A stretch of DNA of 64,000 nt from a virus (IMGVR_UViG_3300030419_008098:32745-96744), one strand, 5' to 3'. Counted from the stretch's first letter, positions 38,021-64,000 are shown. Made by a program: numbers and translations. The notes: a model not told the origin generated them from the letters alone.

Positions 38021-38203
38021 ATGACAAACCTAAAACAAGTTCAAGGAGAAGTTATCTTATGCTGCGGTAAGGGCGGTTGTCCCCGCATAAAGAAGTTTGG
38101 TTCGGACAAAGTAAAAATCACTGACGATTTCGGGAGCACCGTGGTCCTAGACAAAGAACAAGCTTTACTTATTCAGCAGGCTATTAAGCAACTAGATGAC
38201 TGA
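38021..38203 (+). CDS. Small Cys-containing protein
   Basis: LCCGKGGCP, ITDDFG; TATAAT upstream. Confidence 0.6.
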   Translation: MTNLKQVQGEVILCCGKGGCPRIKKFGSDKVKITDDFGSTVVLDKEQALLIQQAIKQLDD

Positions 38204-46103: not shown

Positions 46104-46152
46104 TTTTTATTAATAAGGTTTGGTTGCCAATCCATAAGTCTGTTTCATCGTA

Positions 46153-48067: not shown

Positions 48068-48542
48068 CGGACAACATCACTTCCGATATATAAAATGAAG
48101 CTTCGTTATAACCTACTATTTTAAGGAGCCTCGCTTTATCCTCAGTAAAACCTTCCTGCTGAAATTTATGCAACGGAATAGACAAGGCACACTCCTCTCC
48201 TTCGGTGGAACCGGGAATCTTAAAAACCTCCACTTCCGCAGAGTCATTTTCGTCCTCATCCTTAAAACCTATTCTACAGCACAAATGGTCTTCTGAATAA
48301 AAATTAAAATTAAGAAAAAGATAATCGTCCAAACTTAAAACTTCCCACGCAGAATTAAAAGGAAGAACCCCGCAGAACCAGTCTTCTCTAGAGGCCGGAT
48401 CTTGAGTAAATTTCAACCGAGGCACCCCATTAGCTACCTCCAAAGGAAGCTTTTCGTTAAAGGATCCAGCCACCCCCTCGCACCAACTATTTTTTAGATG
48501 GTTAGCTAAACAAAATTTAGGATTAAATATATTAAGTTTCAT
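48051..48542 (-). CDS. Hypothetical protein, possible carbohydrate-binding beta-sandwich
   Basis: Aromatic, acidic, beta-rich; SIPLHKF..FYISEV resembles CBM11/CIA30-type C-termini; start set at MKLN. Confidence 0.35.
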   Translation of the reverse strand: MKLNIFNPKFCLANHLKNSWCEGVAGSFNEKLPLEVANGVPRLKFTQDPASREDWFCGVLPFNSAWEVLSLDDYLFLNFNFYSEDHLCCRIGFKDEDENDSAEVEVFKIPGSTEGEECALSIPLHKFQQEGFTEDKARLLKIVGYNEASFYISEVMLSDESNL

Positions 48543-49965: not shown

Positions 49966-49999
49966 TTTAATTATAAAAGCATCCCTTAAAAAATCTACC

Positions 50000-50098
50000 T
50001 TAAGTACCGTGGGCCGGAGGCTTCACCAAGAATAAGGCTCCAGCTCTTATAACTGTTTTGCCAAATTTTTTTAAAATTAATGTAGTCTTTTTAGCCAT
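50000..50098 (-). CDS. Possible small basic peptide (32 aa, absent from ORF track)
   Basis: MAKKTTLILKKFGKTVIRAGALFLVKPPAHGT; GTGTA motif at 50121-50125. Confidence 0.4.
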   Translation of the reverse strand: MAKKTTLILKKFGKTVIRAGALFLVKPPAHGT

Positions 50099-50148
50099 GA
50101 GTCCAGCTCTCTATTCTATATACACCGGAGCTCACCGTAAATATGGAC

Positions 50149-50478
50149 TTAAGTTATTTCCAGAATATTTACCGTAGCATCGAGAAGACCTGATACATCT
50201 TTAGCTTGCAGGTAATCATTCGCCTCCAGCACTACCGGAGCCGACAAAGGCTGAAGGGTAGACTGATTAGGTACCATTACCCCGCTCATTAAGTAAGTAG
50301 TGCGCCCATTCGAATTATCGTAGAAACGCATAGTTGCCAGAGTTTCCACGCCTGTGTTTCGGTTAGCTAAATAAATGCTATTTATCATCGCTGTAGTGCC
50401 AGCGGGGCAACTATAAATACCGCTCCAGGTGTCAGCGGTTTCCATATTGGTGCCAGATACTTTATAAGTTTGAGCCAT
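50149..50478 (-). CDS. Small virion structural protein
   Basis: IYSCPAG, SIYLAN, VVLEANDYL, ILEIT pattern typical of tail-associated small proteins of marine phages. Confidence 0.65.
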   Translation of the reverse strand: MAQTYKVSGTNMETADTWSGIYSCPAGTTAMINSIYLANRNTGVETLATMRFYDNSNGRTTYLMSGVMVPNQSTLQPLSAPVVLEANDYLQAKDVSGLLDATVNILEIT

Positions 50479-50524
50479 TGTTATATTATATACACTTGTT
50501 AAGGAGAATTAAATAAAAATATTA

Positions 50525-50758
50525 TTAAGGCCCTACGCCATTTGACCACTCAGCGGTTTGGAGAATTTCCATAATTTCGGAATGAGTATAGAGAGTTTTT
50601 CCTTCTAAGAACGAGGGAGGGGTTCCTCGGTATTTTACTAAAAACAAAGTATTATCCACAGAATACCGCAACGTACCAGGGGCACTCTCCATTATTTCAC
50701 TGAAATTAACCGTAGAAATATCGGCGGCCTCCAGAATTATGTAGTTAGTTGGATTCAT
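50525..50758 (-). CDS. Small conserved phage protein downstream of the LamG gene
   Basis: VNFSEI..TLRYS..KY.G..P.FL..YTHSEI..EW; start set at MNPT. Confidence 0.55.
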   Translation of the reverse strand: MNPTNYIILEAADISTVNFSEIMESAPGTLRYSVDNTLFLVKYRGTPPSFLEGKTLYTHSEIMEILQTAEWSNGVGP

Positions 50759-50759
50759 T

Positions 50760-51581
50760 CTAAGATGGAACATCTTCTTTATACAGAGGGCCGTTGTTTA
50801 AGGCCGCTGTTGCCCCAGAAACGGAACCGTTATTATTAACCGATGTTGGTGTGGAAGTATCTACAGTTGGACTCTGGGTATCTCCCATCCTCCACCAATA
50901 CAGCGGAGAATAAGGAGCTAAATCTGTAGGTGTGCCCGAGTTATATATTTCCCCCACATCCGAAGCAGAAAGCACAGATCTCCACACGCCCACTTCATCT
51001 ATATTGCCCGCAAATTCATAGTTACTGTCTTCCCGCCGACCTATGAAAAACGTAGAATCATGAGAAGAAACTGTCATCGTACCCAACGTTTCAGCCGAAC
51101 CATTAATATACAGTTTAACTCCATTAGTAGCCCCGCTTTCAATAGTAACGGCTACATGGCTCCATACGTCAGCTTCCACCGTGCCTACACTATTAAGTTG
51201 TATTCCTCCCCCATAAACAGATAAATTGCAAGGATAGGCACCGTTACGGATATACAGAGAGTACTGGCGATTCCCTGCACTTTCTCCTGAGTCTACCTTG
51301 GTCCATATGAATTTAAAATTAGTAGAAGAGGAGTCTGGCTTTATCCATGCCGAAATAGTTATGTCGCCAGCGCTATTTAAGTCTGCGCTAGACGCTACTT
51401 CCAAATAATCATCGGCGCCATCAAAGAGTAAAGACCATTTATTATCAAAAGAGGACGAGGGGGCCTTAAGAAGAAAATTTCCCCCTAGTCTCTCTAAGTA
51501 GTGTTTTTTTAGGCCATAAACACCAGCCTTCGCAGTGCGTTTGTCTTTACCTATATAGCCACTGTTTCCGTGTCTACTCAT
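50760..51581 (-). CDS. LamG/concanavalin-A-like domain virion protein
   Basis: SLLFDGADDY, TISAWIK, WSHVAVT, KLYING, GNIDEVGVW, WWRMGD; start set at MSRH (ATGA overlap). Confidence 0.85.
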   Translation of the reverse strand: MSRHGNSGYIGKDKRTAKAGVYGLKKHYLERLGGNFLLKAPSSSFDNKWSLLFDGADDYLEVASSADLNSAGDITISAWIKPDSSSTNFKFIWTKVDSGESAGNRQYSLYIRNGAYPCNLSVYGGGIQLNSVGTVEADVWSHVAVTIESGATNGVKLYINGSAETLGTMTVSSHDSTFFIGRREDSNYEFAGNIDEVGVWRSVLSASDVGEIYNSGTPTDLAPYSPLYWWRMGDTQSPTVDTSTPTSVNNNGSVSGATAALNNGPLYKEDVPS

Positions 51582-52669
51582 CGCATAAACATTACAAAAG
51601 CTTCCGTTGCACCTGCCGTAGAAGTTCCACCACCACAATCTACTTGGCAATAAGCGCCATCCGAACCGGTAATATAAACCTGCCCACTTACCCACAATTC
51701 TCCAGAGACCTCTACTTTATTTCCACTTACAGACAATAAGGTGTCCCCGGTTCCCACGCTCAATTCATCCTTAAAATATCCTGTATTTCCACTGACTGCC
51801 AGAAAAACCCCAGTGCCAGTAGTATTAAACTGTGTCCCTATTAAGACCAAGCCGGTCCCCGCCGTATAAGCAGTTCCTGCGTTGGTACCGGTAGCTACAG
51901 AAACCCCACTAATCGTCAATTCATCCGTGAACACTCCTTGAGTTCCTGTAATATTTTCAAAAAACGCCGAGCCCGAAGTATTAAACTCCGTTCCCACTAA
52001 AGCTAAACCAGTGCCCGCCGTATACGTGGTGCCGCCACCCCCACCTCCTCCTGCTCCTCCCGTAAGCTGCATAAAAGCGCCGTCATTTCCCGTAACAAAA
52101 GCCCTACGAAAATAAGCATCGCTCTGTCCCGACACGATACCGCTGGCATGAATGGTTTCTAAAACTTGAACACCCCCACTAACATTTAATTTTGCTTCGC
52201 TAAAATGATCAACATGCCCGGTTTTATTAAACCCTAAATTAACATTACCGTTATTACCTCCCGCAAGCCCGCTATAGTAGAGTGTGCCATTGCGAGCAAT
52301 CCAATAAGGAATAATTTGAGTAAGCGTCCCATCTTCCCCTGTACCATATATTCCCCCATCTACCCGTAAGTTTCCTCCGCTAATATGAACCATCGCTTGT
52401 GGGAAGCGGCCTGTAAAACCAGCCCCGGTTTCGAGAGGCAACCCAACCCCTAAGCTATTAAAATTACCTTTATTATATACCTGTAGCGGCCCTTCTATAT
52501 CTACCCCTGTTTTGAAAGTAGCCTTCCCTGTAAAGGTTTTTTCTCCGCTAAAAGTGGCATCCCCACTGATAAAATAATTAATATATTGCCCAGTGGCTAT
52601 AATTTGAGATTGTAAATTACTCAGATCCCCATCAAGGCCGTCAATCTGCTTTGTTTTAATTAAATTCAT
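51578..52669 (-). CDS. Tail-fibre-like virion protein
   Basis: Repeats YTAGTGL.L.GT.FNT.G (x2), poly-Gly linker, very S/T/G-rich. Confidence 0.75.
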   Translation of the reverse strand: MNLIKTKQIDGLDGDLSNLQSQIIATGQYINYFISGDATFSGEKTFTGKATFKTGVDIEGPLQVYNKGNFNSLGVGLPLETGAGFTGRFPQAMVHISGGNLRVDGGIYGTGEDGTLTQIIPYWIARNGTLYYSGLAGGNNGNVNLGFNKTGHVDHFSEAKLNVSGGVQVLETIHASGIVSGQSDAYFRRAFVTGNDGAFMQLTGGAGGGGGGGTTYTAGTGLALVGTEFNTSGSAFFENITGTQGVFTDELTISGVSVATGTNAGTAYTAGTGLVLIGTQFNTTGTGVFLAVSGNTGYFKDELSVGTGDTLLSVSGNKVEVSGELWVSGQVYITGSDGAYCQVDCGGGTSTAGATEAFVMFMR

Positions 52670-52731
52670 ATCTCCTACACATTATACACTTTCTTTAGAC
52701 TTTTTTGTTATTCTATTTAATATCTGGCACT

Positions 52732-53301
52732 ATGAGTTTGTCTTTATATAAGCCTAATGCCAAAAACACGGGAGCGGGATTCAGTTTTCAGATTGGATTG
52801 AACCACAAAACCGGAGAAAGCGTCTTGTATGTCAAGGCCATTAAACAACACAGTTGGGATTCCACTAAAAAACAAGGTTATTTCCAAAAAAATATTGGCA
52901 ATCCCGACAAAAACATCACGATTAAGTTCAATGAGTACGAAATTGGTAATTTAATTTATTCTTTACGGTCTCGGGTGGAATATACAACCTTCCACACCTT
53001 CAATGACGACAAAACTATAATTAAACTCGCCCCCTGGGACAGAAAAGCTAAAAAATCCGTAAAAAACGAAGAAACTGGGGCCTGGGAAGACGAATGGATC
53101 ACGGTTCCCTCCCATGCCCTCTCCTTTAACAGAAACGGTAATCAACTTTTCGGTATAACTATTGATCCCGGAGAAGCCGCAACCATTACAGAGTACCTTA
53201 AGGTGGTTTTAAAGCGTATTTTTCACGAAAGAGCTGACAAACAAATACGTGACATAAAAAAAGGCCAAAATTCCACTAATAGCGAAGATGTACCCTTTTA
53301 A
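52732..53301 (+). CDS. Hypothetical nucleic-acid-binding protein with SSB-like C-terminal tail
   Basis: Beta-rich, ends SEDVPF; start set at MSLS. Confidence 0.45.
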   Translation: MSLSLYKPNAKNTGAGFSFQIGLNHKTGESVLYVKAIKQHSWDSTKKQGYFQKNIGNPDKNITIKFNEYEIGNLIYSLRSRVEYTTFHTFNDDKTIIKLAPWDRKAKKSVKNEETGAWEDEWITVPSHALSFNRNGNQLFGITIDPGEAATITEYLKVVLKRIFHERADKQIRDIKKGQNSTNSEDVPF

Positions 53302-55220
53302 TGAAAAAGAAAAAACTACTTTACCACAGTAATCACTGCAAAGCTTTTACCGGCTTTGGCAAAAACGCCAAAAATATTCTCAAATACCTCCATAAAACCG
53401 GAAAATATGAAATTGTAGAGGCTTCGAATGGTATAGTTTTTGGTGATCCTAAATTAGAGAAAATGCCATGGAAAACCATTGGCACGATTCCTAAAGACCC
53501 CCAAGTCCAGCAAGAATGGAACCGGGATCCCGGCAAGGGAAGGCTTATGGCATACGGTGGGGCGCTCATTGACCAAATAATTAAGGAAGAAAAACCAGAT
53601 ATTTATCTCGGGGTAGAGGATATCTGGGCTTTTAACACTTTCTGGGATAAAAAGTGGTGGAATAAAGTTAACTGCATGGTGTGGACAACCCTGGACAGTT
53701 TACCCATCCTCCCCGAAGCCGTGGCCGCCGCTCCTAAAATTAAAAATTACTATGTTTGGGCGTCGTTTGCCGAGACCGCTTTAAATAAACTAGGTCACGA
53801 TCACGTAAAAACGCTGCGAGGGTCACTAGATACCGATATATTCAAACGTCTCCCCGACGAACATAGAAATCAATTACGCACTAATTACAATTTATCTAAA
53901 GATGATTTTATTATCGGGTTTGTGTTTCGAAATCAATTACGAAAAAGCGTTCCTAATATCTTAGATGGCTTCAAACTCTTTTTAGAAAAAGAACCCAACT
54001 CTAACGCAAAACTACTTCTCCATACTCATTGGGGAGAAGGGTGGGATATCCCGCGCTTGCTCAATGAGAAAGATATAGCCCCCGAAAACATCCTCACTAC
54101 TTACTTCTGTCAAAAATGTCAATCTTATGAAATCAAACCCTTTATGGGTCAAGGTCAAAACTGCCGTTTTTGCGGAGGCGAAAAAACCCAAAACACTACT
54201 AATGTAGGAAGCGGGGTAAGTGATGAGCAATTAAATGAAGTTTATAACCTTATGGATGTTTATTGCCACCCCTTCACTAGTGGTGGCCAAGAAATTCCAG
54301 TTCAAGAAGCTAAATTAACAGAACTTATCACACTAGTCACCAATTACAGCTGCGGAGAAGATAGTTGTTCGCCGGAAAGCGGTGGACTTCCCTTAGATTG
54401 GGCCGAATATCGCGAGCCAGGGACTCAATTTATTAAAGCGAGCACCTCAGCTACGAGTATTTTACGACAGTTGAGCAAAGTCTACAAAATGAAAGACGCA
54501 AAAAAGCGTAGTCTAGAAAAGAAATCTAGAAAATGGGTTCTAGATAACTTCTCTATTCCTGTCATCGGCAGTAAATTAGAAGAAATTTTGGATAAAATGC
54601 CCGCCATAGACTGGGATTTCGACTTTAAAGAACCCCTCCGAGACACAAAATACACACCCCCGCCAATTGAAAGCGACAGTGAGTGGATTATAGATATTTA
54701 TGCCAATGTTTTACGCATGACGGTGGATGAAAACGACCAGGGACACAAACACTGGATGGCAGCCTTAGCTCAAGGCAAAACTCGAGACACTATTTTAGAC
54801 TTTTTTCACCAAACTGCAGCCAAGGAAAATGAAGAAATAGATAAAGAAAGCAAACAAAAAGATCTTCAAGAACTCATTGATGACGATAAAGAAAAACGTC
54901 TTATTGTAGTAATGCCGGGAACCATCGGAGATGTCTACATGTCCACCTCCATTCTTCCTTCCCTGGCCAAACTATATCCAGAATATGCAATCTATTATTC
55001 CACCAAGCCAGAATACTTTGATATCTTAAACGGCAATCCCTATATCCATAAAGTCCTGCCTTTTCATGAACAATTTAATGATTTGCTTTATCTGGAAGGC
55101 CGGGGAGACCATCCAGGCTTTTTTGATATTGCCTTTTTACCCACTATAGGAACTCAGCGAATGTTTAACTATCAACATAACGCGCAAGATAGAATAGAAT
55201 TTGATTTATGCACCTCGTAG
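53301..55220 (+). CDS. GT4 glycosyltransferase with Zn-ribbon insert, DUF4214-like segment and N-terminal half of a GT9
   Basis: TGFG, FRNQLRKS, CQKC/CRFC, GGQEIPVQEA; IYANVLR..G.KHW; PGTIGDV..ILNGNPYIHKV. Confidence 0.8.
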   Translation: MKKKKLLYHSNHCKAFTGFGKNAKNILKYLHKTGKYEIVEASNGIVFGDPKLEKMPWKTIGTIPKDPQVQQEWNRDPGKGRLMAYGGALIDQIIKEEKPDIYLGVEDIWAFNTFWDKKWWNKVNCMVWTTLDSLPILPEAVAAAPKIKNYYVWASFAETALNKLGHDHVKTLRGSLDTDIFKRLPDEHRNQLRTNYNLSKDDFIIGFVFRNQLRKSVPNILDGFKLFLEKEPNSNAKLLLHTHWGEGWDIPRLLNEKDIAPENILTTYFCQKCQSYEIKPFMGQGQNCRFCGGEKTQNTTNVGSGVSDEQLNEVYNLMDVYCHPFTSGGQEIPVQEAKLTELITLVTNYSCGEDSCSPESGGLPLDWAEYREPGTQFIKASTSATSILRQLSKVYKMKDAKKRSLEKKSRKWVLDNFSIPVIGSKLEEILDKMPAIDWDFDFKEPLRDTKYTPPPIESDSEWIIDIYANVLRMTVDENDQGHKHWMAALAQGKTRDTILDFFHQTAAKENEEIDKESKQKDLQELIDDDKEKRLIVVMPGTIGDVYMSTSILPSLAKLYPEYAIYYSTKPEYFDILNGNPYIHKVLPFHEQFNDLLYLEGRGDHPGFFDIAFLPTIGTQRMFNYQHNAQDRIEFDLCTS

Positions 55221-56371
55221 AACAATATGCCTTAAGTTGTGGAGTGAAAATTGACACTCCTTTTGTAGAAACTAGTTATTTTCCTCTTCCTTTTGAAAAA
55301 TATGTAGTAGTTCACCCGAGCAGTGGAATGGGGGCTAAAAACTACGACTACTATAAAGATGTTATTGAATTATGCCTCCCGAGTTTTGCAGAAAATAATA
55401 TAAAAATAGTTCAAATAGGCGGTCCCAAGGACGACCCTTTACCCTTTTGCTACCACACCCAAGGAAGCACTACCTTAAATCAGGTTTTTTATTTAATTAA
55501 GAATTCTCTTCTTTTATTTGGAAACGATTCCTTTAGTGCCCATGTTGCCGGAGGATTTAATAAAAAAAGTGTCTCTCTTTATAGTAACTTATTTCACGAA
55601 TGCTGTAAACCTTATTGGGGAAACCCCAAGGATCAAGTATTTATCCAGGCGGATCGCAAAGGCCTTAAGCCCTCCTTCTCGGCTGAAGAATCTACAAAAA
55701 CTGTTAACAATATTTATCCCGAAGAAGTAGCTAGAAATATTTTAAAACTTTTAAATTTAAAAAACAATTTAAAGGCTTACTCCACTTTACATATAGGCTC
55801 CACTTATAGTCAACCGATCCTAGAAGTAATTCCGGACTTTGCTCCTGTCGGAGGGTTGGTTCCTGCCGATACAGGGATTAATGTACGCCTTGATTATTTA
55901 CACAACCCTGAAATTGCGGCGCAATGGTGTTTTAATTATAAAACCCATCTAGTAATTAAAGAACCCATAGAAATTAAGTTTCTAGAGGCAGTAAAACAGA
56001 ACATTGTTAAAATAACTGTTGAACTTAATGATTCCTTTTCCGAGAATTACATTCGCAAACTGCGCAATTTAGGGATTGCAGTGGAATTGTTTGCTCCCGA
56101 CAATAACCAATTAATGGAAACGAGAGTTGAGTTCATTGATTGGGATGTAGAGAAATTAGACTTTCCTGAGAAAAAAGACCTTGACTTTATAGATGATATA
56201 TGCGATAATACGTATTATAAAAGCTCGAAAACCCTTCTGTCTCACGGCAAACAATACTCCAGTAAGGCTGCATGGGAAGCTAGAGAATCCAAAAGTAAAT
56301 ACGAACCAATCATAGATAGTGAATCCTTCTGGAAAGAATCGCAATATTTTAGAATCTATAATCAGGAATAA
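55208..56371 (+). CDS. C-terminal half of a GT9-like glycosyltransferase plus an extra domain
   Basis: MHLVEQY, VVHPSSG..KNY, VQIGG, FGNDSFSAHVA. Confidence 0.75.
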   Translation: MHLVEQYALSCGVKIDTPFVETSYFPLPFEKYVVVHPSSGMGAKNYDYYKDVIELCLPSFAENNIKIVQIGGPKDDPLPFCYHTQGSTTLNQVFYLIKNSLLLFGNDSFSAHVAGGFNKKSVSLYSNLFHECCKPYWGNPKDQVFIQADRKGLKPSFSAEESTKTVNNIYPEEVARNILKLLNLKNNLKAYSTLHIGSTYSQPILEVIPDFAPVGGLVPADTGINVRLDYLHNPEIAAQWCFNYKTHLVIKEPIEIKFLEAVKQNIVKITVELNDSFSENYIRKLRNLGIAVELFAPDNNQLMETRVEFIDWDVEKLDFPEKKDLDFIDDICDNTYYKSSKTLLSHGKQYSSKAAWEARESKSKYEPIIDSESFWKESQYFRIYNQE

Positions 56372-56373
56372 CG

Positions 56374-57135
56374 ATGCCGCGTCCTAAAAAAAATCCTACC
56401 GTTGAGATTAATAACTCAACGGGACCTTCAACCTTTCTCCGTGACGAGCATGGGTTGCTTCAAAACGTCCAATACACTTTTAATGAGGATGGCTCTGTTA
56501 ATTGGAGAGCTATGATTAAAAACGAACACCTCTTCCCTAACAGGGCTTGGTTTGAATCGCGAGGAAAGGACGTCCCTCACAGCACAGAAGGCCTTAAAGA
56601 CCACCAGCTTCTCATTAAATTAAGCGGAATCAAAGAATTGGCTCGTTTGCGTGGGTTTTCCTCTGTTTCTTTTAAGTCCGAGAAATGCGAAGAGCATCAC
56701 GTTGCCGTAAATTGCACCATGAATTTTATCCCTAATTATGAAACTTGTGGGGAAGAGGTTAGCTTTCAAGACATGGCAAACGCCACCTTGGAAAATACTA
56801 GTAGTTTCGCGACTAAGTTTTTAGAAACCATTGCTTGCAACCGCGCTTTTGTGCGTTGTGTTCGCAATTTCCTCAATGTCCACATTGTTGGTGATGACGA
56901 AATAGATAAATCCGACAAACCTCCAGCAGTGGGAAAAAAGCAAAACCTTAATTCTCTTTCTCCTTATGGTGTTTTGGAAAAACAATTCGGAACCTTTGAT
57001 GACTTCAAGGTTAAACTTCGCGAACTCTGGTCTACAAAACAATATAAAAACGATGCCGTTAAGCAATGGTCTGACTTTTCGGATATACCGGCTAAAGAAG
57101 CTCGTATCTTAATTGGGTTAATTAATTCAGAATAG
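56374..57135 (+). CDS. Conserved phage protein, possibly a single-strand annealing protein
   Basis: LLIKLSGIKELA..., ETIACNRAFVRCVRNFL resembles the Rad52/Erf 'A.xRA.xR' helix; weak. Confidence 0.4.
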   Translation: MPRPKKNPTVEINNSTGPSTFLRDEHGLLQNVQYTFNEDGSVNWRAMIKNEHLFPNRAWFESRGKDVPHSTEGLKDHQLLIKLSGIKELARLRGFSSVSFKSEKCEEHHVAVNCTMNFIPNYETCGEEVSFQDMANATLENTSSFATKFLETIACNRAFVRCVRNFLNVHIVGDDEIDKSDKPPAVGKKQNLNSLSPYGVLEKQFGTFDDFKVKLRELWSTKQYKNDAVKQWSDFSDIPAKEARILIGLINSE

Positions 57136-57455
57136 TGATGGCCTACGTCCTCCTGTCCTGCATAGGCCTGATGTGCATATTGCGCTATGGCTCCATTTTT
57201 AATTGGCCTCGAGATCTTCTGTCGTCCCGTAGTGAAATTTTTGAGGGTTTATTTGATTGTAGTTTATGCCTTGGGTTTTGGTGTGGAATTATAGTGGCGG
57301 GGATTATGTATTTTATAAAGTGGGACCTAAATTATTGTCTTTTACCTTTTGCCTCCGCAGCTATATGTTGGCTTTTCGATGCAATAATTAGAATTTTGCA
57401 GTTGGCCGAAACCTTTTTAAATAATAAAAAAATCCCCCCGAGACCTAGAAAATAA
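57135..57455 (+). CDS. CxxC membrane protein (DUF1360-like), paralog of 38196-38510
   Basis: IGLMCILRYGSI, LFDCSLCLGFW. Confidence 0.65.
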   Translation: MMAYVLLSCIGLMCILRYGSIFNWPRDLLSSRSEIFEGLFDCSLCLGFWCGIIVAGIMYFIKWDLNYCLLPFASAAICWLFDAIIRILQLAETFLNNKKIPPRPRK

Positions 57456-57521
57456 TAAACTAGTTTAAATAGAAAACAAACCCCTGATTCCTTATTATAG
57501 AGGGAACACTACCATTAAGTT

Positions 57522-58361
57522 ATGTCCTTTCCCTCTTCGCCTTCCGAATGTTGCCCTACAGGGTCGGGGTGTATTACAGATTTTCTTTCTGGGGCTGGGG
57601 GAGTTAGTGGATTTAATTTTATTGTTCAAAATAGCCCCTTTCGCACCGGAACAACAGGGAGTGACAGTTGTTGCGACGTTTTATGTTCTGGATTTGAAAG
57701 AATAGATTACGTTAAAGACGGGAGTATTGCTTACGTTAGCATTTATGACGGGGCTGGAGGATATATAGAAAACGCTAGCGGCTCAAGTGGCATTACGTAC
57801 ACCCCTACCACCATGCGAGCTGCCCCCAATACCTGTTGCGAACAACCCCCTACCTTCAACCCGCTCCCTTGTGTCTGCACGGAAATGTATACTTGGTCCC
57901 TTACTTGTACCTATGAGGGAACCACCACACCCTCCCCCATGACTTATACGGCTACTTGCGCATGTTGTATTTCCGGATACAACAATAATTGCGCACCCTT
58001 CCTTTGGAATACTGATACTTGTAAGTTTACCGGACTTTTGTATGACAATGACGGTTATTCTATCTCCACTCTAGCAGGGAGTGGGGAAATATATTTTGAT
58101 CCCTGCAAAAACAAATGGGTGCTGTCTACCTCATGGCCAGGTAGTGCCAATCAATGGCCCGGCGGTGTTTCACTTTTTGCGGATGTTTTAACATGCACCG
58201 GTTTGGGGGAAGGGAGTTTTGAACAACCAGGAAACTTGCCTTACGGTGTTTTTCATGGGGAAGGGGGAGGACTTCCTAGCGGCACAATCTGCTACGAGAG
58301 AGCGGATTGCGGCGCCCCCCGTCCCCCAGATTTTCCAAGCACTTCCAAGGACTGTAGATAA
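57522..58361 (+). CDS. Cys-rich, S/T/G-rich protein (probable virion protein)
   Basis: 21 Cys in 279 aa by hand count, four CC doublets, no signal peptide. Confidence 0.6.
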   Translation: MSFPSSPSECCPTGSGCITDFLSGAGGVSGFNFIVQNSPFRTGTTGSDSCCDVLCSGFERIDYVKDGSIAYVSIYDGAGGYIENASGSSGITYTPTTMRAAPNTCCEQPPTFNPLPCVCTEMYTWSLTCTYEGTTTPSPMTYTATCACCISGYNNNCAPFLWNTDTCKFTGLLYDNDGYSISTLAGSGEIYFDPCKNKWVLSTSWPGSANQWPGGVSLFADVLTCTGLGEGSFEQPGNLPYGVFHGEGGGLPSGTICYERADCGAPRPPDFPSTSKDCR

Positions 58362-59144
58362 ATGTTAATCTACACTCCTATTGAGAAATGCAAAACCGTT
58401 ATTTGTAGTTCTCCCAAATGCGCTTGCCAAACTATTTCTCGGTTAACTTTAAGACTTTTTACCCACCCCTTTTTTAATACCTACCACTTGGGAGCGCCTT
58501 CCGCAAACCCCGACCACCTAAAAGCTCAACAAAAACAATTTACTACCGTCGTCGACCCCTCTTTTAAGAAAATTATTACAACCCGCCACCCCTTAAAACG
58601 GATTTTGAGTTGTTATAATTACATGATCTTAGGATTGCATTCTTATACGCAAGCGAAAAGTGGAGAAAAATGGTTTAAATCTCCTCTGGAAAAATTTACG
58701 GGGAGACCGTTATGTAGCACGACTTTTACGGAATTTATAGATTATATATTAAAAACCCCTGACAACTTACGAGATATTCATTTTTCTACTCAATCGTTTT
58801 TAGCAGAAGATATAAATTTCGATAAAATAATTAGGCTAGAAAACTTTATTGAAGACTTTGAAAATGCCATAACCGATTTAAAACTCCCAGTTGTTCTCCC
58901 AAAACAAATCCAAAGAAATAAAACTAATTACGCCCACTTTAATACCAGCGAACTTACTGAAGAAATTTTAGAAAAAATATATACTATTTACGAGCAAGAT
59001 TTTAAAAAATTCAACTATGCACCCATTAGCCTCCTAGAAATTAAAGAGTATATAAATTCTAAATCCATAGCGGGGCCCGTTCACCAAGGACGCTTAACCC
59101 ATAAATCCCGAGAGTTTAAAAATGAAGGTGTATTGTTTTTATAA
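58362..59144 (+). CDS. Sulfotransferase (Sulfotransfer_2)
   Basis: PKCACQT, RHPLKRILSCY, DIHF..Q, RLENF, IYEQDF. Confidence 0.82.
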   Translation: MLIYTPIEKCKTVICSSPKCACQTISRLTLRLFTHPFFNTYHLGAPSANPDHLKAQQKQFTTVVDPSFKKIITTRHPLKRILSCYNYMILGLHSYTQAKSGEKWFKSPLEKFTGRPLCSTTFTEFIDYILKTPDNLRDIHFSTQSFLAEDINFDKIIRLENFIEDFENAITDLKLPVVLPKQIQRNKTNYAHFNTSELTEEILEKIYTIYEQDFKKFNYAPISLLEIKEYINSKSIAGPVHQGRLTHKSREFKNEGVLFL

Positions 59145-60015
59145 TTCTCACTATGAAAAACTTTACCATCTCTTTAGGGATTCTTTATTAAGTTTAAAAG
59201 AGGGATTTGAGTTAAAGTCTCTCAAAACAGAAGAAGACTTTCCCTATTTAGACACGGGATATACCATGCAGCATGGTAAGTATAAAATCCAATTTATAAT
59301 TAACGCAATCAAGGAGAACCTAGGAGAGTCGATTGTATTTTGCGATGTAGATATTAAATTTTTTAACCCCTTTAAACTTTCACTTCAAAAAGTTTTAAAA
59401 AGGGTCGACGTAGCTTTTCAGGCCCAATATTCAGAACGACGCCCTAGGCGCCCCGGCTTGCCCCCTTTTGATCTTAACGGCGGTTTTATGGCTATTAACT
59501 GCAACCCCACCACTTTGGAGTTTTTTAAAAATGTACTTAAAGTAAATGACGCTAAAACCATTATAGAAAAAGCGTTATTTGTGAATTTACATTTAGTTAA
59601 ACACGAACTTCTCAGTATTAAATTTGCCAGCCTAACTAACGGAGGGGTAGGAGAGTACCACGATCAAATTTATCTCCTTCATGCCAATGTTCACGATGCC
59701 AGCCCTCGGTTAATTAAAAAAATGAATCGAGTAATGAAACGCACTAAAGAAAGCTTAAATGGCAATCGACCTCTCAGCGACAAACGAACTCAACGCCAAA
59801 TAGAACTACAAGGAAACAAAAAGGTGATTGAACAATTTGTAAAAAATGATTGTAAAAATTACAAAAACCAAGAGATAGGGGTGGATTGCGATGACTTCTG
59901 GGTAAAATACAACCAAGAACTCAACGGCCCCGGATGCCGAGGGTGCTTTCAGCGTAAAGTTATAAAAAAATATGCGGATTTAGCTCGCGCTTATTTACTT
60001 ACTCAAAAGGCTTAA
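59122..60015 (+). CDS. Nucleotide-diphospho-sugar transferase (GT77-like) with C-terminal 4-Cys domain
   Basis: DVD, NGGFM, LHAN; tail C-x11-C..GCRGC..KKY. Confidence 0.75.
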   Translation: MKVYCFYNSHYEKLYHLFRDSLLSLKEGFELKSLKTEEDFPYLDTGYTMQHGKYKIQFIINAIKENLGESIVFCDVDIKFFNPFKLSLQKVLKRVDVAFQAQYSERRPRRPGLPPFDLNGGFMAINCNPTTLEFFKNVLKVNDAKTIIEKALFVNLHLVKHELLSIKFASLTNGGVGEYHDQIYLLHANVHDASPRLIKKMNRVMKRTKESLNGNRPLSDKRTQRQIELQGNKKVIEQFVKNDCKNYKNQEIGVDCDDFWVKYNQELNGPGCRGCFQRKVIKKYADLARAYLLTQKA

Positions 60016-63000
60016 ATAGTACCCACCCCGAGCTAAGGACTCCGTCTTCGCATAAGGTAATTAATTTTTTCTCATACCCCTGTAATCCCGTATATTTTAC
60101 ATGCAAAATACTGGGGCCATCTGGATTGGATAGAGCGTCGTAAGGGGTATCGTCGGCCACAATTTCAATTCCTCCAGACCCCTTAATAACAACTTCGTCA
60201 CCACATCCCGTGGCATCTAAAGAGGGAATACTCAAACGGTGTTCGGCCCAAATTTTATTCCACGATTCCCGGCAAACCGACCCTGTCGCCACATCTTGCC
60301 CGCTAATCTTTAAACTGGTTCCGAAACTTGCTTCGTCTCCATAAATCGTACCCCCACTTATAGTTAACCCAGTTATATCTGTAGCCCGAACATTAGTTGC
60401 ATTTAAAGTGGCCGTGCTATGGGTCCACGTAAAGGTAGAGGATCCCCCAAAACTGCCGTTATCATTATATTGTACATAAGTATTGGATCCCCCAGGACTG
60501 GCTCCACCCCCTCCGCCACCAGTTTCTCCGGTATACCCCACCCAGAGAGCACCACCTTCAACTTTAGTTTGAATACCACTAATCCCCGAAATTCCCAAAG
60601 AATCACAACCGCTGGCTTCCAAGGTTCCATCATCTGAGGTGATTTCTGAAAAAGCATTTTCACAACCACTCCCGCTTCCACCCACACTGCCAGTAAAACT
60701 AATGCGGATATCAGGGCCCGAAGGAGTTCCGGAAACTATGGTCTCAATACCCTCCCCTCCATACACATGTAAAGTAGTGCATCCAGTGGGAAACCCCATA
60801 CCTTTATCCGCGAGAAGAGCCACAAAAGTATCCTTGGCACAACCCGTGTACCCTATCCGCAATGCGTCATCTACAATGGAAACATTTATTCCAGAATGCC
60901 CCGTAACAGTTAATGTATCGCACCCGGAAGCACTCAATAGCTCGCCACCAGCACTTACTTTCGAAAAGGCAGTCTCACAACCAGTGGCGGAACAGGTTCC
61001 TTTGCAAATTTCTAAAGACGACGCACTAACTCCAGTATAATCAGGTACCGTAGAACCCGCATTAAAGAATTGATCCCATTCACTGATGCCGGCGTCCTGG
61101 TCGGAATTGTTACCGGAAAAAAAGTAAATTTCGGTCCCTGCCCCAAAAGGCCAAAGTGCAGTATTGTCCGTATCCCAAGTCGTAATATCGGATAAAGTAG
61201 CGTCAATTGATACCGTTTCCCCGTTTTTATTTATCATTGAGATGCAAGCCAAATCCCCGCTACCCCAAGTTCCCTCTACCGCGTTACCAGACAAAGTTAT
61301 TTTAGCATTTCCCTCTATAAAACCTATATTGGAACCGGGGTACGCATCCGGATCGGACCCGGTATAAGTAAGATAGCTATTGCAGTCTTGGGCGTCATCG
61401 GTGTACGAAAAGACAACTTGTCCATTATCGTCAACTGTAATATTCAGCCCTCCGGATCCTGATAAAATTAAATGATCGTCACACCCCTGAGCTTCTATTG
61501 AATGCGTATTGGTGGTAATTCTTCCCCATGCAGCCCCACAACCACTTCCATCGGCCCCACCCCCGGTGGTGCCCGTATAGGCTATCCATAAAGCCCCACC
61601 TGAAACCATGGTGTGAATACCACTAATCCCCGAAATTCCCAAAGAATCACACCCTATAGCTACCAACTCTCCGTCATCCGAGGTGATTCCTGAAAAAGCG
61701 TTTTCGCAACCTCCTCCCCCGCCAGGATGAGAAATAACCAAATCATCTCCGACCCAGGCAGTAGTAACACTTCCCGCTCCTATAATATTAAAACTATCAT
61801 CGCAGCCATAAGCCGTATGCGGAGTGTTGCTCTGGTCATAAACCGTTCTAAATACATTCTCACAACCACTAGTCGTGATTGAGCCTGTAATCCCGGTATA
61901 ACAAATTTCTACTACGGGAGTCGCCCCGGCGGTGTTTAAACTTACATCAATTCCACTACAACCAGTAAAAAGCAACGTATTAGAACACCCCGACGCAGCC
62001 ACCGTGTTGCCCGAAACACCAAATTTATTAAAAACATCCGAACAGCCAGACCCAGTGGCTGCACCCCCCGTAAGACCAGTATAGCAAATTTCTATCACCG
62101 GATACGGCACGCCGTTGGACTCTTCTCGTAAATTTACATCAATTCCGCTACACCCACTAAAAAACAACGCACCCGAACACCCCGACGCAGCCACCCAATG
62201 GGATGTACCTTCGCCTGTAACACCAAATTTATTAAATACATCCGGGCAACCTCCGGATTCGGATCCTGAAACGGTTTCCGAACCACAAGTAGCATTCAAG
62301 GGTAATACGCCCTCCTCCCCAATCCATTGCATAGTCTCCCCATCTGCACCAATGCTGTCATTAAAATATAAAACAGGATCAGTGGCTAAAGTATAGAAGT
62401 ACCCCGAAATCGACCTATCTTTTCCTGTGTTAGATTCATGATCTTGGCTAGCGGACTCACAAATGCAATTAAATAAAGGATGTTTGGAATCAATACAAAG
62501 GGGGATTTTCTGCAGTCGGAGGGGCGCCCCTTTTATAGGTCTTACAGCTTCAGCTAAAGGAATGCCTCTTGATCCTTGCGCTTCACCCGGAGCCTCGTCG
62601 CCGTAATCTTCTGCATTTTCTTTACCCCAATAAGTATAATCACGATCCGTTTGGGGGTAGCCTCCTAAAAACTTTATTTTTTTAGACCCATCGCATCCCG
62701 AAAATCCGGACCAATGCTCTTTTAAATCTATATCTTTTTCGGCTCCGTTAAAGGTGGCTGCAGCACGATAATTGGCGTTTTGATCCATTTGCACTCCCCC
62801 TAATGGCATCGGATCTCCAAATGGCTTAACAGGCGCCCCTGCAATTAACCATTTTCCTGCTCCCCTTTCCCATCCTGAAATCCCTGTCCCCCACTGCGAA
62901 TTAAAGTCCTCAACAGCCCCGGACCCTACATAATTTTCGGCAAATTTCCACACCTTATCGACAGTATCCCATTCGAGAGGAACTGTTCTATTATATGTAT

Positions 63001-63394
63001 ATAAATCTAAACTATTAAAATCCAGCAACAAAGGAGTTTCCGGATTAGGTTCGGCAGGAGCTTGAGTGGGAATACCTTGACCACCCCACCCTTTCACGGG
63101 AGACACCCGCACCTGATAATGTTTTAGGGGAACTGGCATAGGAGAGCCAGTGGTGTCATATATATCGGGCCAGGGTGCGCCTAACGAAAGACTGGGGGTT
63201 AAGGCATCTACGCCAAAGGCGGACCACTCCTTCCAGCCTGCCCTACCCACGCTGCCCCCCGCACTATACTGATAGGCGGCCATGTCCGAATTATTTAATG
63301 AAGGATTTCCATACAAGCCATAAGATTCACTTTGTGACTTGCACTGAAACCAGTCAAGGTAAGCATAATCATTTGGACCGCTAAGAAAACTCAT
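59999..63394 (-). CDS. Long tail-fibre-like protein with nine Cys-pair repeats
   Basis: Repeat GCxxxF..xGCxxL..xGxxGI..YTG; fibre motif PGGSNTYVQYNDNGSFGG. Confidence 0.8.
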   Translation of the reverse strand: MSFLSGPNDYAYLDWFQCKSQSESYGLYGNPSLNNSDMAAYQYSAGGSVGRAGWKEWSAFGVDALTPSLSLGAPWPDIYDTTGSPMPVPLKHYQVRVSPVKGWGGQGIPTQAPAEPNPETPLLLDFNSLDLYTYNRTVPLEWDTVDKVWKFAENYVGSGAVEDFNSQWGTGISGWERGAGKWLIAGAPVKPFGDPMPLGGVQMDQNANYRAAATFNGAEKDIDLKEHWSGFSGCDGSKKIKFLGGYPQTDRDYTYWGKENAEDYGDEAPGEAQGSRGIPLAEAVRPIKGAPLRLQKIPLCIDSKHPLFNCICESASQDHESNTGKDRSISGYFYTLATDPVLYFNDSIGADGETMQWIGEEGVLPLNATCGSETVSGSESGGCPDVFNKFGVTGEGTSHWVAASGCSGALFFSGCSGIDVNLREESNGVPYPVIEICYTGLTGGAATGSGCSDVFNKFGVSGNTVAASGCSNTLLFTGCSGIDVSLNTAGATPVVEICYTGITGSITTSGCENVFRTVYDQSNTPHTAYGCDDSFNIIGAGSVTTAWVGDDLVISHPGGGGGCENAFSGITSDDGELVAIGCDSLGISGISGIHTMVSGGALWIAYTGTTGGGADGSGCGAAWGRITTNTHSIEAQGCDDHLILSGSGGLNITVDDNGQVVFSYTDDAQDCNSYLTYTGSDPDAYPGSNIGFIEGNAKITLSGNAVEGTWGSGDLACISMINKNGETVSIDATLSDITTWDTDNTALWPFGAGTEIYFFSGNNSDQDAGISEWDQFFNAGSTVPDYTGVSASSLEICKGTCSATGCETAFSKVSAGGELLSASGCDTLTVTGHSGINVSIVDDALRIGYTGCAKDTFVALLADKGMGFPTGCTTLHVYGGEGIETIVSGTPSGPDIRISFTGSVGGSGSGCENAFSEITSDDGTLEASGCDSLGISGISGIQTKVEGGALWVGYTGETGGGGGGASPGGSNTYVQYNDNGSFGGSSTFTWTHSTATLNATNVRATDITGLTISGGTIYGDEASFGTSLKISGQDVATGSVCRESWNKIWAEHRLSIPSLDATGCGDEVVIKGSGGIEIVADDTPYDALSNPDGPSILHVKYTGLQGYEKKLITLCEDGVLSSGWVLFKPFE
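60570..60607. repeat. Exact 38-bp direct repeat, copy 1 (core of a longer intragenic duplication)
   Basis: tgaataccactaatccccgaaattcccaaagaatcaca is identical at 61614-61651. Confidence 0.9.
61614..61651. repeat. Exact 38-bp direct repeat, copy 2
   Basis: Identical to 60570-60607; flanks remain similar. Confidence 0.9.
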
Positions 63395-63437
63395 GAGTAG
63401 AAAAATTTAAAATTTACATTATAATAATTACACTATT

Positions 63438-63656
63438 ATGGACGATGATTTTTTAATAGATATGTTTTTTCGCCACGGCTGTACTGGTCCTGACGGCAGC
63501 AAGCTCCCATTGAGAAATTGTGAAAAAATTCATAAATTATATAGAGATGAAGTGGATGGAACATTTTGTAGTGGTTGCGCCATTAGAGCTATTAAAAAAA
63601 AATATGCCCAGCGTTTGAGGATTTTCCTGCAAAAAGACCGAGAGCTTAAATCGTGA
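63438..63656 (+). CDS. Small 4-Cys (CxxC) protein resembling the C-terminus of 59122-60015
   Basis: C-x12-C..Y..E..CSGC..R..KKY; TAGAAA-N16-TATAAT upstream. Confidence 0.7.
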   Translation: MDDDFLIDMFFRHGCTGPDGSKLPLRNCEKIHKLYRDEVDGTFCSGCAIRAIKKKYAQRLRIFLQKDRELKS

Positions 63657-64000
63657 CCTCCCCGGTTTTTCCATAAAAAGTGGCAGTAACGCTTCGCAAA
63701 GGCAACCCCTCTAGCAAAAAAGAATTTATGGCACCAGTAGTTCGGGTGCAATTCGTATTAGTAAGGACACCATTAACAAAATACGTATGATAATCCGGGA
63801 AAACAGTACCGCTTATCTCCACGGCGGAATTTTTATAACTAAAAAAATAATTATTTTCTTCACCCTCTGAAAAATACTGTAATCTTAGTGGGGTTATGCC
63901 GGTTTCATAATCGGCATTAATAATATTATCATATGCATTCTGCGAGAATGTTGTCGTACCGGCACGGATCATGCCAGTTTCTTCGTCATAGTCTTCTTCT
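63646..64000 (-). CDS. 3' end of a probable virion protein, partial
   Basis: Frame stays open past the track ATG to the window end (EEDYDEETGMIR...). Confidence 0.6.
   Translation of the reverse strand, partial: EEDYDEETGMIRAGTTTFSQNAYDNIINADYETGITPLRLQYFSEGEENNYFFSYKNSAVEISGTVFPDYHTYFVNGVLTNTNCTRTTGAINSFLLEGLPLRSVTATFYGKTGEVTI

Follow-up and report, generated by a model that had tools for sequence, protein, structure and literature searches.

Ser/Thr-Gly dipeptide excess in a set of fibre-type proteins of an uncultured marine phage

Two proteins encoded in a 64,000-nucleotide stretch of DNA from an uncultured marine phage (the window) contain many more Ser-Gly and Thr-Gly dipeptides ([ST]G) than shuffled sequences of the same composition. 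The reading we favour, held at roughly even confidence, is that a set of fibre proteins particular to this lineage has a repeat architecture of which the excess is the signature. Its short beta-strands, with inward hydrophobic residues at positions -3 and -1, would terminate in an outward Ser or Thr, and the Gly that follows would form a turn. Such units, stacked every 6–7 residues or arranged as Cys-containing repeats of 50–70 residues, would build an intertwined trimeric beta-helical shaft. The principal fibre, of 363 aa, would consist of a helical N-terminal anchor, a neck of triple beta-helix resembling that in receptor-binding proteins of lactococcal phages, and repeat modules, together with a LamG lectin-fold partner. 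The dipeptides would then be conserved because they are critical to the fold, so that modification would not be required to account for their number.

Dipeptide counts in the window

The expected number of [ST]G was obtained for each of 71 ORFs of the window from 2000 composition-preserving shuffles. The 363-aa protein (51578–52669, minus strand), a tail fibre or receptor-binding-type protein to judge from its homologues and trimer model, contains 31 (13 SG and 18 TG) against 13.0 expected (z 6.1), exactly the number that the earlier note had estimated by hand. The 1131-aa protein (59999–63394, minus strand) contains 65 against 32.7 (z 6.8). The predicted surplus over composition is therefore borne out by the shuffles for both proteins. 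Smaller numbers were found in a 109-aa protein matching phrog_1276, of unknown function (50149–50478, minus strand; 5 against 1.5, p 0.0045), in which five of the seven glycines follow Ser or Thr, precisely as claimed; in a 279-aa orphan protein with 21 Cys (57522–58361, plus strand; 14 against 7.5, p 0.0075); and in the C-terminal part of a protein truncated by the contig end (63646–64000, minus strand; 5 against 2.1, p 0.027). The count for a 212-aa protein (12325–12963, minus strand) was not significant (7 against 3.9, p 0.07). After correction for 71 ORFs only the 363-aa fibre and the 1131-aa protein remained individually significant. The four minor proteins together gave 31 against 14.9 (z 4.9), in a set that was picked post hoc in the earlier note. 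The suggestion that all of these share one pattern stands for the 1131-aa protein, where the words SGC, SGISGI and YTG were found, and for the 279-aa, truncated and 212-aa proteins only when pooled. Thr-Gly is about as frequent as Ser-Gly in these proteins.

The pattern had been described as not evident in the enzymes. This holds, because the 65 remaining ORFs of the window, when pooled, show no excess (138 against 127.7, z 1.0). Nor is the excess general among structural proteins. A Laminin_G_3 (concanavalin-like lectin fold) protein is encoded immediately after the fibre (50760–51581, minus strand; Pfam E 7e-28), its ATG overlapping the fibre TGA as ATGA, an arrangement that points to translational coupling; it contains 5 [ST]G against 6.2, counted on the longer GTG-started ORF. 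In a complete relative, G001, which has the same glycan genes, the tail sheath and two tail fibres typed by PHROG are likewise unenriched (z -0.9 to -1.6), as is the 4557-aa protein, so the picture of virion proteins as a class loaded with the dipeptide was too broad.

A 55-aa two-Cys repeat, [ST]GC...[ST]GC-D-x-L-x-[IV]-[ST]G-x-[ST]G-I...Y-T-G, recurs about nine times in the 1131-aa protein, for which searches of Pfam, PHROG and PDB gave no match. Most of the protein's excess lies within the repeat copies (27 against 11.5; 16 against 8.0), and 22 dipeptides against 14.1 (z 2.5) lie outside them. The two-Cys motif is also present in a homologue of the fibre (P0015), and an 808-aa orthologue of the whole protein is found in G001. 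The truncated protein has a 504-aa [ST]G-rich orthologue (z 4.4) in the tail-gene region of G001. The label 'virion-type' given to these proteins has support for the 363-aa fibre and, indirectly through their tail-region orthologues, for the 1131-aa and truncated proteins; none of the 109-, 279- and 212-aa proteins could be assigned a structural role, and for the 279-aa protein no Pfam or PHROG family, no relatives and no atlas lead were found.

Conservation and architecture of the 363-aa fibre

Sixty homologues of the fibre were found, which together contain 1427 [ST]G against 982 expected, with z above 2 in 30. In the eight closest (28–43% identity), Ser or Thr was kept in 70% of cases when it preceded Gly and in 33% when it did not; Gly was kept in 71% of cases after Ser or Thr against 49% elsewhere, and the hydrophobic class in 73%. 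The homologue at 43% identity shares 24 of the 31 [ST]G columns. These comparisons show purifying selection on the [ST]G sites and bear out that part of the earlier note which held that the dipeptide had been selected at high density.

The same results bear on whether the excess is an artefact of chance or composition. The proteins are rich in Gly, Ser and Thr, and four of the six named lose individual significance on multiple-test correction. However, the shuffles preserve composition and still leave z values of 6–7, the reverse dipeptide G[ST] shows no excess in the fibre (16 against 13) or the 1131-aa protein (34 against 32.7), the excess recurs in the homologues, and individual alignment columns conserve the sites. 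We regard an artefact as refuted, with a negligible chance of being correct.

The fibre, which has no family in Pfam or PHROG, comprises an N-terminal helix, a beta-repeat of 6–7 residues, a two-copy repeat (YTAGTGLxLxGTxFN) and a conserved C-terminal end (SGELWV[ST]G...CQVxCGGG...EAFVMFMR); it contains only two Cys. Its [ST]G excess is distributed from end to end and amounts to 21 against 7.3 (z 6.1) outside the two-copy repeat. Dipeptides at residues 35, 41, 47 and 54 are spaced by 6, 6 and 7. In a context logo of 96 sites the hydrophobic fraction was 0.56 at position -3 and 0.66 at -1, compared with 0.34 at -2 and 0.36 for the background. From this hydrophobic-x-hydrophobic-[S/T]-G context we infer the end of a beta-strand ahead of a turn, with the hydroxyl pointing outward. 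Eleven homologues with differing C-terminal parts share the N-terminus (MNLIQxKQ...SGDSTFSGxKTFTG), and fibre-type C-terminal modules occur among the homologues: Peptidase_S74 in 3 of 40, and also RCC1, CBM5_12 and Big_6.

A homotrimer of fibre residues 1–333 was predicted with a score of 0.81, the best of three controls scoring 0.00. Of 30 proteins solved as same-chain pairs 20 attained that mark, as did 1 of 23 single-chain structures; these counts hold only roughly here, because the alignment was custom-made and three copies were modelled. Contact agreement between runs was at least 93%, with a partner pLDDT of at least 80. The lowest-error interchain contacts in the model are shifted by about 6 residues (64–58, 58–52, 103–96), an offset that matches the [ST]G spacing. 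The monomer model had a pLDDT of just 40, and the trimer result may stem in part from likeness to solved fibres.

Comparison with fibres of other phages

Fibre proteins of well-studied phages (T4 gp34–37, gp12 and gp10, lambda J and stf, T7 gp17, P2 H) gave observed/expected ratios of 0.4–1.45, with no [ST]G excess, and those of P-SSP7 gave 1.2–1.6. Triple beta-helices have been solved for some classical fibres. Because the classical fibres lack the excess, Ser or Thr before a turn Gly is not a general structural need. The earlier note had allowed that its pattern might be a pure beta-turn preference of fibres; a generic fibre trait is excluded by the ratios of the well-studied set, which with TP901-1 included span 0.4–1.5.

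A near structural parallel is the lactococcal phage TP901-1 BppL (ORF49; PDB 2f0c, 3d8m, 4v96), which like the 363-aa fibre has a helix followed by a short-period beta-repeat at its N-terminus. The fibre family profile matched BppL residues 18–62 only weakly (E 0.013–0.03 over about 45 residues), the two sharing the word [ST]GD.T..G.KTFTG. At two of four aligned sites BppL has A-G and N-G, whereas close homologues of the fibre rarely replace the Ser or Thr, and BppL overall shows no [ST]G enrichment (7 against 4.5, z 1.4). A PDB search found no solved relative for the remaining 300 or so residues of the fibre, including the Cys-containing C-terminal motif. The absence of an excess from classical fibres and the weakness of the BppL match both run against a role in the fold alone.

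Other proteins of G001 are enriched: its 702-aa protein has a z of 9.9, and its 639-aa protein is likewise [ST]G-rich. These two and the 279- and 109-aa proteins of the window share the excess with no mutual similarity detectable by BLAST, which looks like common pressure rather than common descent. This too is an observation that fold alone does not readily accommodate.

Glycan genes and possible glycosylation

Pfam scans identified about 20 sugar-related genes in the contig and no exporter. Among them are a UDP-glucose/GDP-mannose dehydrogenase family protein (25978–27111; PF03721/PF00984, once), two GT47 domains (PF03016; 31966–32886 and 47093–48067), three Sulfotransfer_2 proteins (PF03567) and two GT61 proteins (PF04577; 18430–19407 and 43571–44620; E 7e-17 and 8e-15). 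G001 gave six sulfotransferase, two GT47 and one GT61 matches. The families named in the earlier note (UDP-sugar dehydrogenase, GT47, sulfotransferases) are thus encoded, none of them being glycosaminoglycan-specific. GT47 includes many enzymes unrelated to glycosaminoglycans.

That note had proposed a proteoglycan-like system. In such a system Ser-Gly would be xylosylated and extended to sulfated glycosaminoglycan-type chains with UDP-GlcA, GT47 enzymes and sulfotransferases. Ser-Gly and the three enzyme families are indeed common to the window and to proteoglycan attachment. The acceptor context differs: acidic residues show no surplus within three positions of SG (1 against 1.2; 5 against 6.2), nor does SGxG (0 against 0.9; 3 against 2.7), a hydrophobic residue precedes the site, and Thr-Gly occurs as often as Ser-Gly. 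Searches found no GT14 (Branch/XylT) or GT64 in the contig, which is 69% complete, and no GT14 in the complete G001, whereas control genomes did give GT14 matches; a search for GT43 also returned nothing, its control having matched nowhere either. The proteoglycan-like system is largely refuted by the flanks, the lack of SGxG excess and the failure to find GT14, and we consider it very improbable. An EOGT-like route, in which GT61 enzymes would add sugar to (Y/F/L)-(S/T)-G near Cys in Cys-containing repeat proteins, is scarcely better placed and also very unlikely to be correct. Animal EOGT, a GT61 enzyme, modifies C5-x-x-G-(Y/F/L)-(T/S)-G-x2-3-C6 in EGF domains (PMC5388531). The first GT61 protein of the window weakly matches EOGT 9wjk (E 0.004), and the 1131-aa protein has 18 [YFL][ST]G against 4.3 expected and 21 cases of [ST]G followed by Cys within 0–3 residues against 3.6. 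This word excess derives, however, from one internal repeat; the strict consensus was matched in none of the five proteins and Pfam detected no EGF domain in them, the 363-aa fibre has just two Cys, and the GT61 genes lie 8–40 kb from the [ST]G-rich proteins. GT61 also covers plant xylan-modifying enzymes.

A stronger candidate, though one to which we give appreciably less than even weight, is that [S/T]-G, beyond its role in the fold, provides putative O-glycosylation acceptors. The likeliest enzymes would be those of a four-gene module on the plus strand, with the wider island elaborating, methylating and sulfating the chains. The module comprises a conserved 198-aa protein (52705–53301), a 639-aa glycosyltransferase matching phrog_2170 (53301–55220; weak GT1/GT4-type and DUF4214 signals), a 387-aa protein whose match to the GT9 (heptosyltransferase) model covers the C-terminal side only (55208–56371; PF01075 E 1.2e-6) and a conserved 253-aa protein of unknown function (56374–57135). 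It adjoins the fibre divergently in the window and in four relatives (L005, L006, L007 and L009), to which the 198-aa protein is 53–75% identical; identity to relatives is 57–71% for the 639-aa enzyme, of which IMG/VR holds 342 relatives, and 56–73% for the 253-aa protein. On the other side of the module in the window is a second [ST]G-rich protein, the 279-aa orphan, followed by a Sulfotransfer_2 protein (58362–59144, plus strand) and a nucleotide-diphospho-sugar-transferase-like protein (59122–60015, plus strand), both assigned by domain match. In G001 the module adjoins the 808-aa orthologue.

The module genes travel together in 80 IMG/VR loci (198-aa in 76, 387-aa and 253-aa in all 80), although these represent one lineage and not independent samples. 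In these loci z exceeds 3 in 20% of immediate downstream neighbours and in 25% of ORFs within 2.5 kb, compared with 3–6% elsewhere. Glycosylation is also consistent with a hydroxyl residue as conserved as the Gly and, by its context, probably facing outward; with an excess in mutually non-homologous proteins that the examined fibres of coliphages, TP901-1 and P-SSP7 show weakly or not at all; and with the large set of sugar genes unaccompanied by an exporter. On the other hand, such adjacency is expected in a tail-fibre region anyway, the upstream neighbour of the module is not a fibre in most of the 80 loci, and the unenriched PHROG-typed fibres of G001 (63–68 kb) adjoin glycan genes (72–98 kb). 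No relative free of glycosyltransferases was found for comparison.

The proposed system would resemble the bacterial autotransporter heptosyltransferases, which glycosylate Ser in turns of beta-helical adhesins. A precedent exists in TibC, which heptosylates Ser-313 of TibA in '...QNSGG...', a Ser-Gly in a turn, and which modified Ser and not Thr (PMC4358343). As with TibC and Aah acting on TibA and AIDA-I, a putative GT9-type enzyme lies beside a repetitive, probably beta-helical surface protein, and the sites are similarly dense. In the window, by contrast, Thr is as frequent as Ser, the acceptors are candidates, and only the C-lobe of GT9 is recognised: the 387-aa protein aligns with positions 106–221 of the 247 in the PF01075 profile, the N-lobe being undetected by Pfam, and its structure model has a pLDDT of 52. 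A PDB search with this protein gave RfaF (1psw) as the single hit (E 0.41) and no TibC chain. In mycobacteriophages, glycosyltransferases encoded by the phage are reported to O-glycosylate virion proteins (Freeman et al. 2023, cited in PMC12619734), and the citation places the glycans at the C-termini of capsid and tail-tube subunits. Both systems have phage transferases in or beside structural genes and a proposed coating of virion proteins; the window differs in its candidate internal strand-end fibre dipeptides and in a far larger gene set with sulfo- and methyltransferases.

If the dipeptides are structural only, they define a large family of so far uncharacterised fibre modules in marine phages, whose marks (a simple signature, repeats containing Cys and a conserved motif at the C-terminus) could aid annotation of tail fibres that Pfam and PHROGs miss. 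Should they accept sugars as well, tailed phages would have their first case of sequon-directed tail-fibre glycosylation; it would explain very large glycan gene sets without visible export machinery, and would have a bearing on how hosts are recognised, how virions are shielded from proteases and grazers, and how sulfated glycans arise in the sea. Tentatively, a widespread lineage of uncultured marine myoviruses may carry a hydrophobic-[S/T]-G sequon at outward-facing strand ends of several unrelated outer tail proteins, which the module would glycosylate and a variable island of about 20 sugar, methyl and sulfate transferases elaborate into a sulfated fibre coat. It is a similarly speculative suggestion that such a coat would work like autotransporter hyperglycosylation, wholly virus-encoded. 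The clustering of [ST]G-rich ORFs within 2.5 kb downstream of the transferase module in the 80 loci is a further observation that sits uneasily with a role confined to the fold.

Ser/Thr-Gly dipeptides in the window and in other fibres

Ser/Thr-Gly dipeptides ([ST]G) were counted in 71 ORFs, and the expected number for each was obtained from 2000 composition-preserving shuffles. The 363-aa fibre protein (51578-52669(-)) contains 31 dipeptides versus 13.0 expected (z 6.1), exactly the number reported by hand count in the earlier note, and the 1131-aa protein (59999-63394(-)) contains 65 versus 32.7 (z 6.8). The excess claimed for these two large proteins therefore survives correction for composition. 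As the shuffles keep composition and there is no excess of the opposite order, G[ST], a composition artefact or chance was rejected for both. The same pattern had been claimed for four smaller proteins, where it is significant only when they are pooled (31 versus 14.9, z 4.9). These are the 279-aa protein (57522-58361(+); 14 versus 7.5, p 0.0075), the 109-aa protein (50149-50478; 5 versus 1.5, p 0.0045), in which 5 of 7 glycines do follow Ser or Thr, a truncated protein (63646-64000; 5 versus 2.1, p 0.027) and the ORF at 12325-12963 (7 versus 3.9, p 0.07). The remaining 65 ORFs together contain 138 dipeptides versus 127.7 expected (z 1.0), in line with the earlier note's remark that the pattern is not evident in the enzymes.

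The main source of the excess in the 1131-aa protein is a 55-residue unit present in about nine copies (residues 376-660 and 801-965), with two cysteines and five semi-conserved [ST]G positions in the arrangement [ST]GC...[ST]GC-D-x-L...Y-T-G. The rest of the protein has a modest excess (22 versus 14.1). The repeats have no relative in Pfam, PHROG or PDB, a homologous-protein search with the repeat region returned nothing, and nothing useful came from the ESM Atlas for the 1131-aa or the 279-aa protein. The excess in the 363-aa fibre is independent of its two-copy repeat (21 versus 7.3 outside it). The 279-aa protein, whose gene has the transferase module on one side and a sulfotransferase gene on the other, contains 21 cysteines, with CC pairs and the word CCPTGSGC; it matched no family and is absent from all relatives examined.

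The excess is not a general feature of fibres. T4 gp34-37, gp9-12 and wac, lambda J and stf, T7 gp17 and P2 H gave observed/expected ratios of 0.4-1.45, none with z >1.5, and BppL, the receptor-binding protein of TP901-1, has 7 dipeptides versus 4.5. The fibres of marine podovirus P-SSP7 gave ratios of 1.2-1.6, with z 2.7 for gp17. For the nearest homologues of the 363-aa fibre the ratios are 2-3.6 and the z values 4-10. Equal enrichment in fibres of phages without glycosyltransferases, which the earlier note had raised, was not seen in this comparison, which covers unrelated fibres only; scans of GenBank, IMG/VR, bacterial genomes and metagenomes yielded neither a homologous fibre from such a phage nor a relative lacking the transferase module. 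Four fibre homologues (P0012, P0014, P0029 and P0031; alignment A4) contain tandem repeats of about 70 residues with four cysteines, have ratios of 3.0-3.6, and carry runs like Y-SG-YI-SG-Q-SG-IFDWL-SG-N-SG-YM. The C-terminal word of the window fibre, SGELW-I-TGSDGA-CQV-C-GGG, is found again in P0012, P0014 and P0016, and the ...EAFVMFTR end of the window fibre is also present in P0014 and P0016. No IMG/VR loci were found for the A4 proteins, and IMG/VR scans with this subfamily, with the 1131-aa protein and with the fibre alone gave no matches.

The earlier note had described virion-type proteins as loaded with the dipeptide. The 96.7-kb IMG/VR virus contig, of which the window is bases 32745-96744 and for which CheckV estimates 69% completeness, contains no recognised capsid, portal or sheath gene, so 'virion-type' was a guess that needed a test. 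A complete relative of 194.5 kb (G001, which contains the related locus L006) has six sulfotransferase, two GT47 and one GT61 matches, and z >3 in only 6 of its 185 ORFs. The strongest excess seen is in its 702-aa protein (137694-139802), in the tail-gene region, with 46 dipeptides versus 13.5 (z 9.9) and runs such as VSGYVSGYITGH...SGVSGEV. The other five are the fibre orthologue of 530 aa, a 504-aa protein likewise encoded among the tail genes, a 169-aa protein adjoining the sheath gene, a 639-aa protein whose gene lies in another part of the genome, and a 259-aa ORF; the 808-aa orthologue of the 1131-aa protein reaches z 2.8. No excess was found in the tail sheath (z -1.6), in two strong PHROG tail-fibre/tail-spike matches (z -0.9 each), in a 4557-aa ORF of the tail-gene region (C1:143302-156975(-); z -0.1), or in the LamG protein encoded beside the window fibre. 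The claim thus fails for virion proteins as a class: the signature is a property of a subset of fibre-like proteins, not of virion exposure as such.

The 363-aa fibre and the conservation of its dipeptides

Pfam and PHROGs gave no match for the 363-aa protein, and an exhaustive HMMER search recovered 60 relatives. These have the N-terminus MNLIQxKQ...SGDSTFSGxKTFTG in common and vary in their C-terminal parts. Pfam domains among 40 relatives are Peptidase_S74, a chaperone domain of fibres and spikes, RCC1, CBM5_12 and Big_6. Judged from the sequences, a constant N-terminus with varied C-terminal domains is the modular pattern of tail fibres. The family profile gave a weak match (E 0.013-0.03) to the receptor-binding protein of TP901-1, in its N-terminal helix and neck, with the aligned word ...[ST]GD.T..G.KTFTG.... 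The repeat region has no relative in the PDB, and a GenBank search with the homologue P0006 matched its RCC1 domain only. An identical fibre is encoded on a 133.5-kb contig.

The stop codon of the fibre gene overlaps the start codon of the LamG gene (50760-51581(-); Laminin_G_3, Pfam E 7e-28) as ATGA at 51578-51581(-), and this overlap suggests that the two genes are translationally coupled. The lectin-fold LamG protein is a plausible distal binding partner of the fibre. The ORF finder's GTG start for the LamG gene, at 51695, is probably incorrect.

As a monomer, the fibre was modelled poorly by AF2 (pLDDT 40). A homotrimer model of residues 1-333 scored 0.81, versus 0.00 for the best control; the score mark, only a rough guide here, is reached by 20 of 30 proteins solved as one-chain pairs and by 1 of 23 solved single chains. 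At least 93% of contacts agreed between trimer runs, with pLDDT of at least 80, and the pass may be partly owed to likeness with solved fibres. The lowest-error contacts join residue i with i-6 of the next chain, the same period as the [ST]G sites, which in the N-terminal part lie at residues 35, 41, 47 and 54. By hand count, about 57% of the [ST]G sites lie among the interface residues as compared with about 61% of all residues, which is uninformative.

Retention of the sites was counted in the eight closest full-length homologues (28-43% identity). This replaced a count over all 50 partial hits, in which retention was only 55% versus 45% and was diluted by distant matches to the repeats. In the eight homologues, Ser/Thr before Gly is retained in 70% of cases versus 33% for other Ser/Thr (odds ratio 4.9), Gly after Ser/Thr in 71% versus 49% for other Gly, and the hydrophobic class in 73%. 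Shared [ST]G columns number 24 of 31 at 43% identity and 19 of 27 at 29.6%. By this measure the dipeptides are under constraint equal to that of the core. The enriched proteins form at least five groups with no BLAST-detectable similarity between them. Short modules move between groups: the 169-aa protein of G001 has a 24-residue stretch in common with the fibre, and the repeat word of the 1131-aa protein (FSGCSGI...ICYTG) is found again in the fibre homologue P0015.

The transferase module and the meaning of the dipeptide

The fibre gene is divergent from four genes (52705-57135(+)) encoding a 198-aa protein, a 639-aa glycosyltransferase (53301-55220; phrog_2170, E 5e-19), a 387-aa protein (55208-56371) and a 253-aa protein. 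The 387-aa protein matches the C-terminal part of the GT9 model only, and its AF2 model is poor (pLDDT 52). By eye, the last 120 residues of the 639-aa protein (...VVMPGTIGDVYMATSLLP...) resemble a GT9 N-terminus; Pfam detected no GT9 N-lobe there. The related loci L005, L006/G001 and L009 have the same gene order, with the module between the fibre and a second [ST]G-rich protein, and of these genes the short contig L007 retains just those for the fibre and the 198-aa protein. For the 639-aa protein, an IMG/VR scan returned 342 relatives. Among the best 80 of these loci, which form one lineage (54-63% identity) and are not independent samples, three module genes are invariably found together, and 76 loci also have the 198-aa gene. 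The upstream neighbour is in most cases not a fibre (z >3 in 3%). On the downstream side z >3 is reached by 20% of the directly adjacent ORFs and by 25% of those up to 2.5 kb away, versus 3-6% elsewhere. The association of module and [ST]G-rich ORFs is real, but could be no more than a consequence of where the module lies, at the border of the fibre genes.

Among the 96 sites of the two large proteins, hydrophobic residues occupy position -3 in 56% and -1 in 66% of cases, and position -2 in 34% (background 36%). This alternation would mark the end of a β-strand, with the -1 and -3 side chains on one side. The Ser/Thr would then face the opposite side, outward, and the Gly that follows would be the turn residue. 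On balance we give an even chance to [ST]G being the mark of the fold in a family of trimeric β-repeat fibres particular to this lineage. A serious rival, to which we assign somewhat less than an even chance, is that these sites also accept sugars transferred by the adjacent module. The hydroxyl residue is dispensable in classical fibres, the excess is common to unrelated proteins and the module is a constant neighbour, all of which favour modification.

The form of glycosylation proposed in the earlier note, analogous to that of proteoglycans, is very unlikely. The acceptors here differ in being hydrophobic at -1 and in lacking acidic flanks; there is no SGxG, and Thr is as common as Ser. Searches for the enzymes found no GT14 or GT64, and that for GT43 was uninformative. 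A reading after EOGT, the animal GT61 enzyme that modifies EGF domains, is favoured by the GT61 domains encoded in the window and by the excess of [YFL][ST]G and [ST]G-Cys words in the 1131-aa protein; however, there is no strict match to the published EOGT consensus (PMC5388531) and no EGF domain in these proteins. To our knowledge, phage virion glycosylation is not known at fibre strand ends. In mycobacteriophages it affects capsid and tail-tube subunits, at their C-termini (work cited in PMC12619734). The closest working analogy is autotransporter hyperglycosylation: in TibA, a GT9-type enzyme modifies Ser in β-helix turns, including Ser-313 in '...QNSGG...' (PMC4358343). The 387-aa protein, however, has no similarity to TibC, the heptosyltransferase that acts on TibA.

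Glycan genes and the variable region

The window is GC-poor (about 40%) and encodes a DnaB-type helicase, a primase, a UvsX-like recombinase and a ribonucleotide reductase; a DnaE-type polymerase gene lies upstream of it. The glycan set is very large, with GDP-mannose dehydratase, UDP-sugar dehydrogenase, epimerases, several methyltransferases, two GT61, two GT47, a GT2, a GT-D-like protein, Nucleotid_trans proteins and three Sulfotransfer_2 proteins. No GenBank phage matched the region, the fibre or the 639-aa transferase, a bacterial genome scan found no prophage copy, and a metagenome scan gave three loci.

Relative to L005, L006 and L009, about 12 kb of additional genes are present in the window (39409-51695); they encode a fused epimerase/C-methyltransferase, a GT61, a GT47, two sulfotransferases, a 477-aa protein of unknown function and the LamG operon. 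In those three loci the 124-aa gene (39009-39383 in the window) lies within about 2 kb of the fibre gene, and from this gene order 39409-51695 looks like an insertion or variable island. Paralogous small genes flank it, one on each side (57135-57455, 106 aa, and 38196-38510, 104 aa), and both match a single ORF in L005, L006 and L009 (46-58% identity). A second phrog_2170-type glycosyltransferase of 361 aa (36925-38010(+)) is 62-69% identical in relatives, a higher conservation than that of the fibres; it is found, along with the 124-aa gene, in 31 of the best 80 of the 342 IMG/VR loci.
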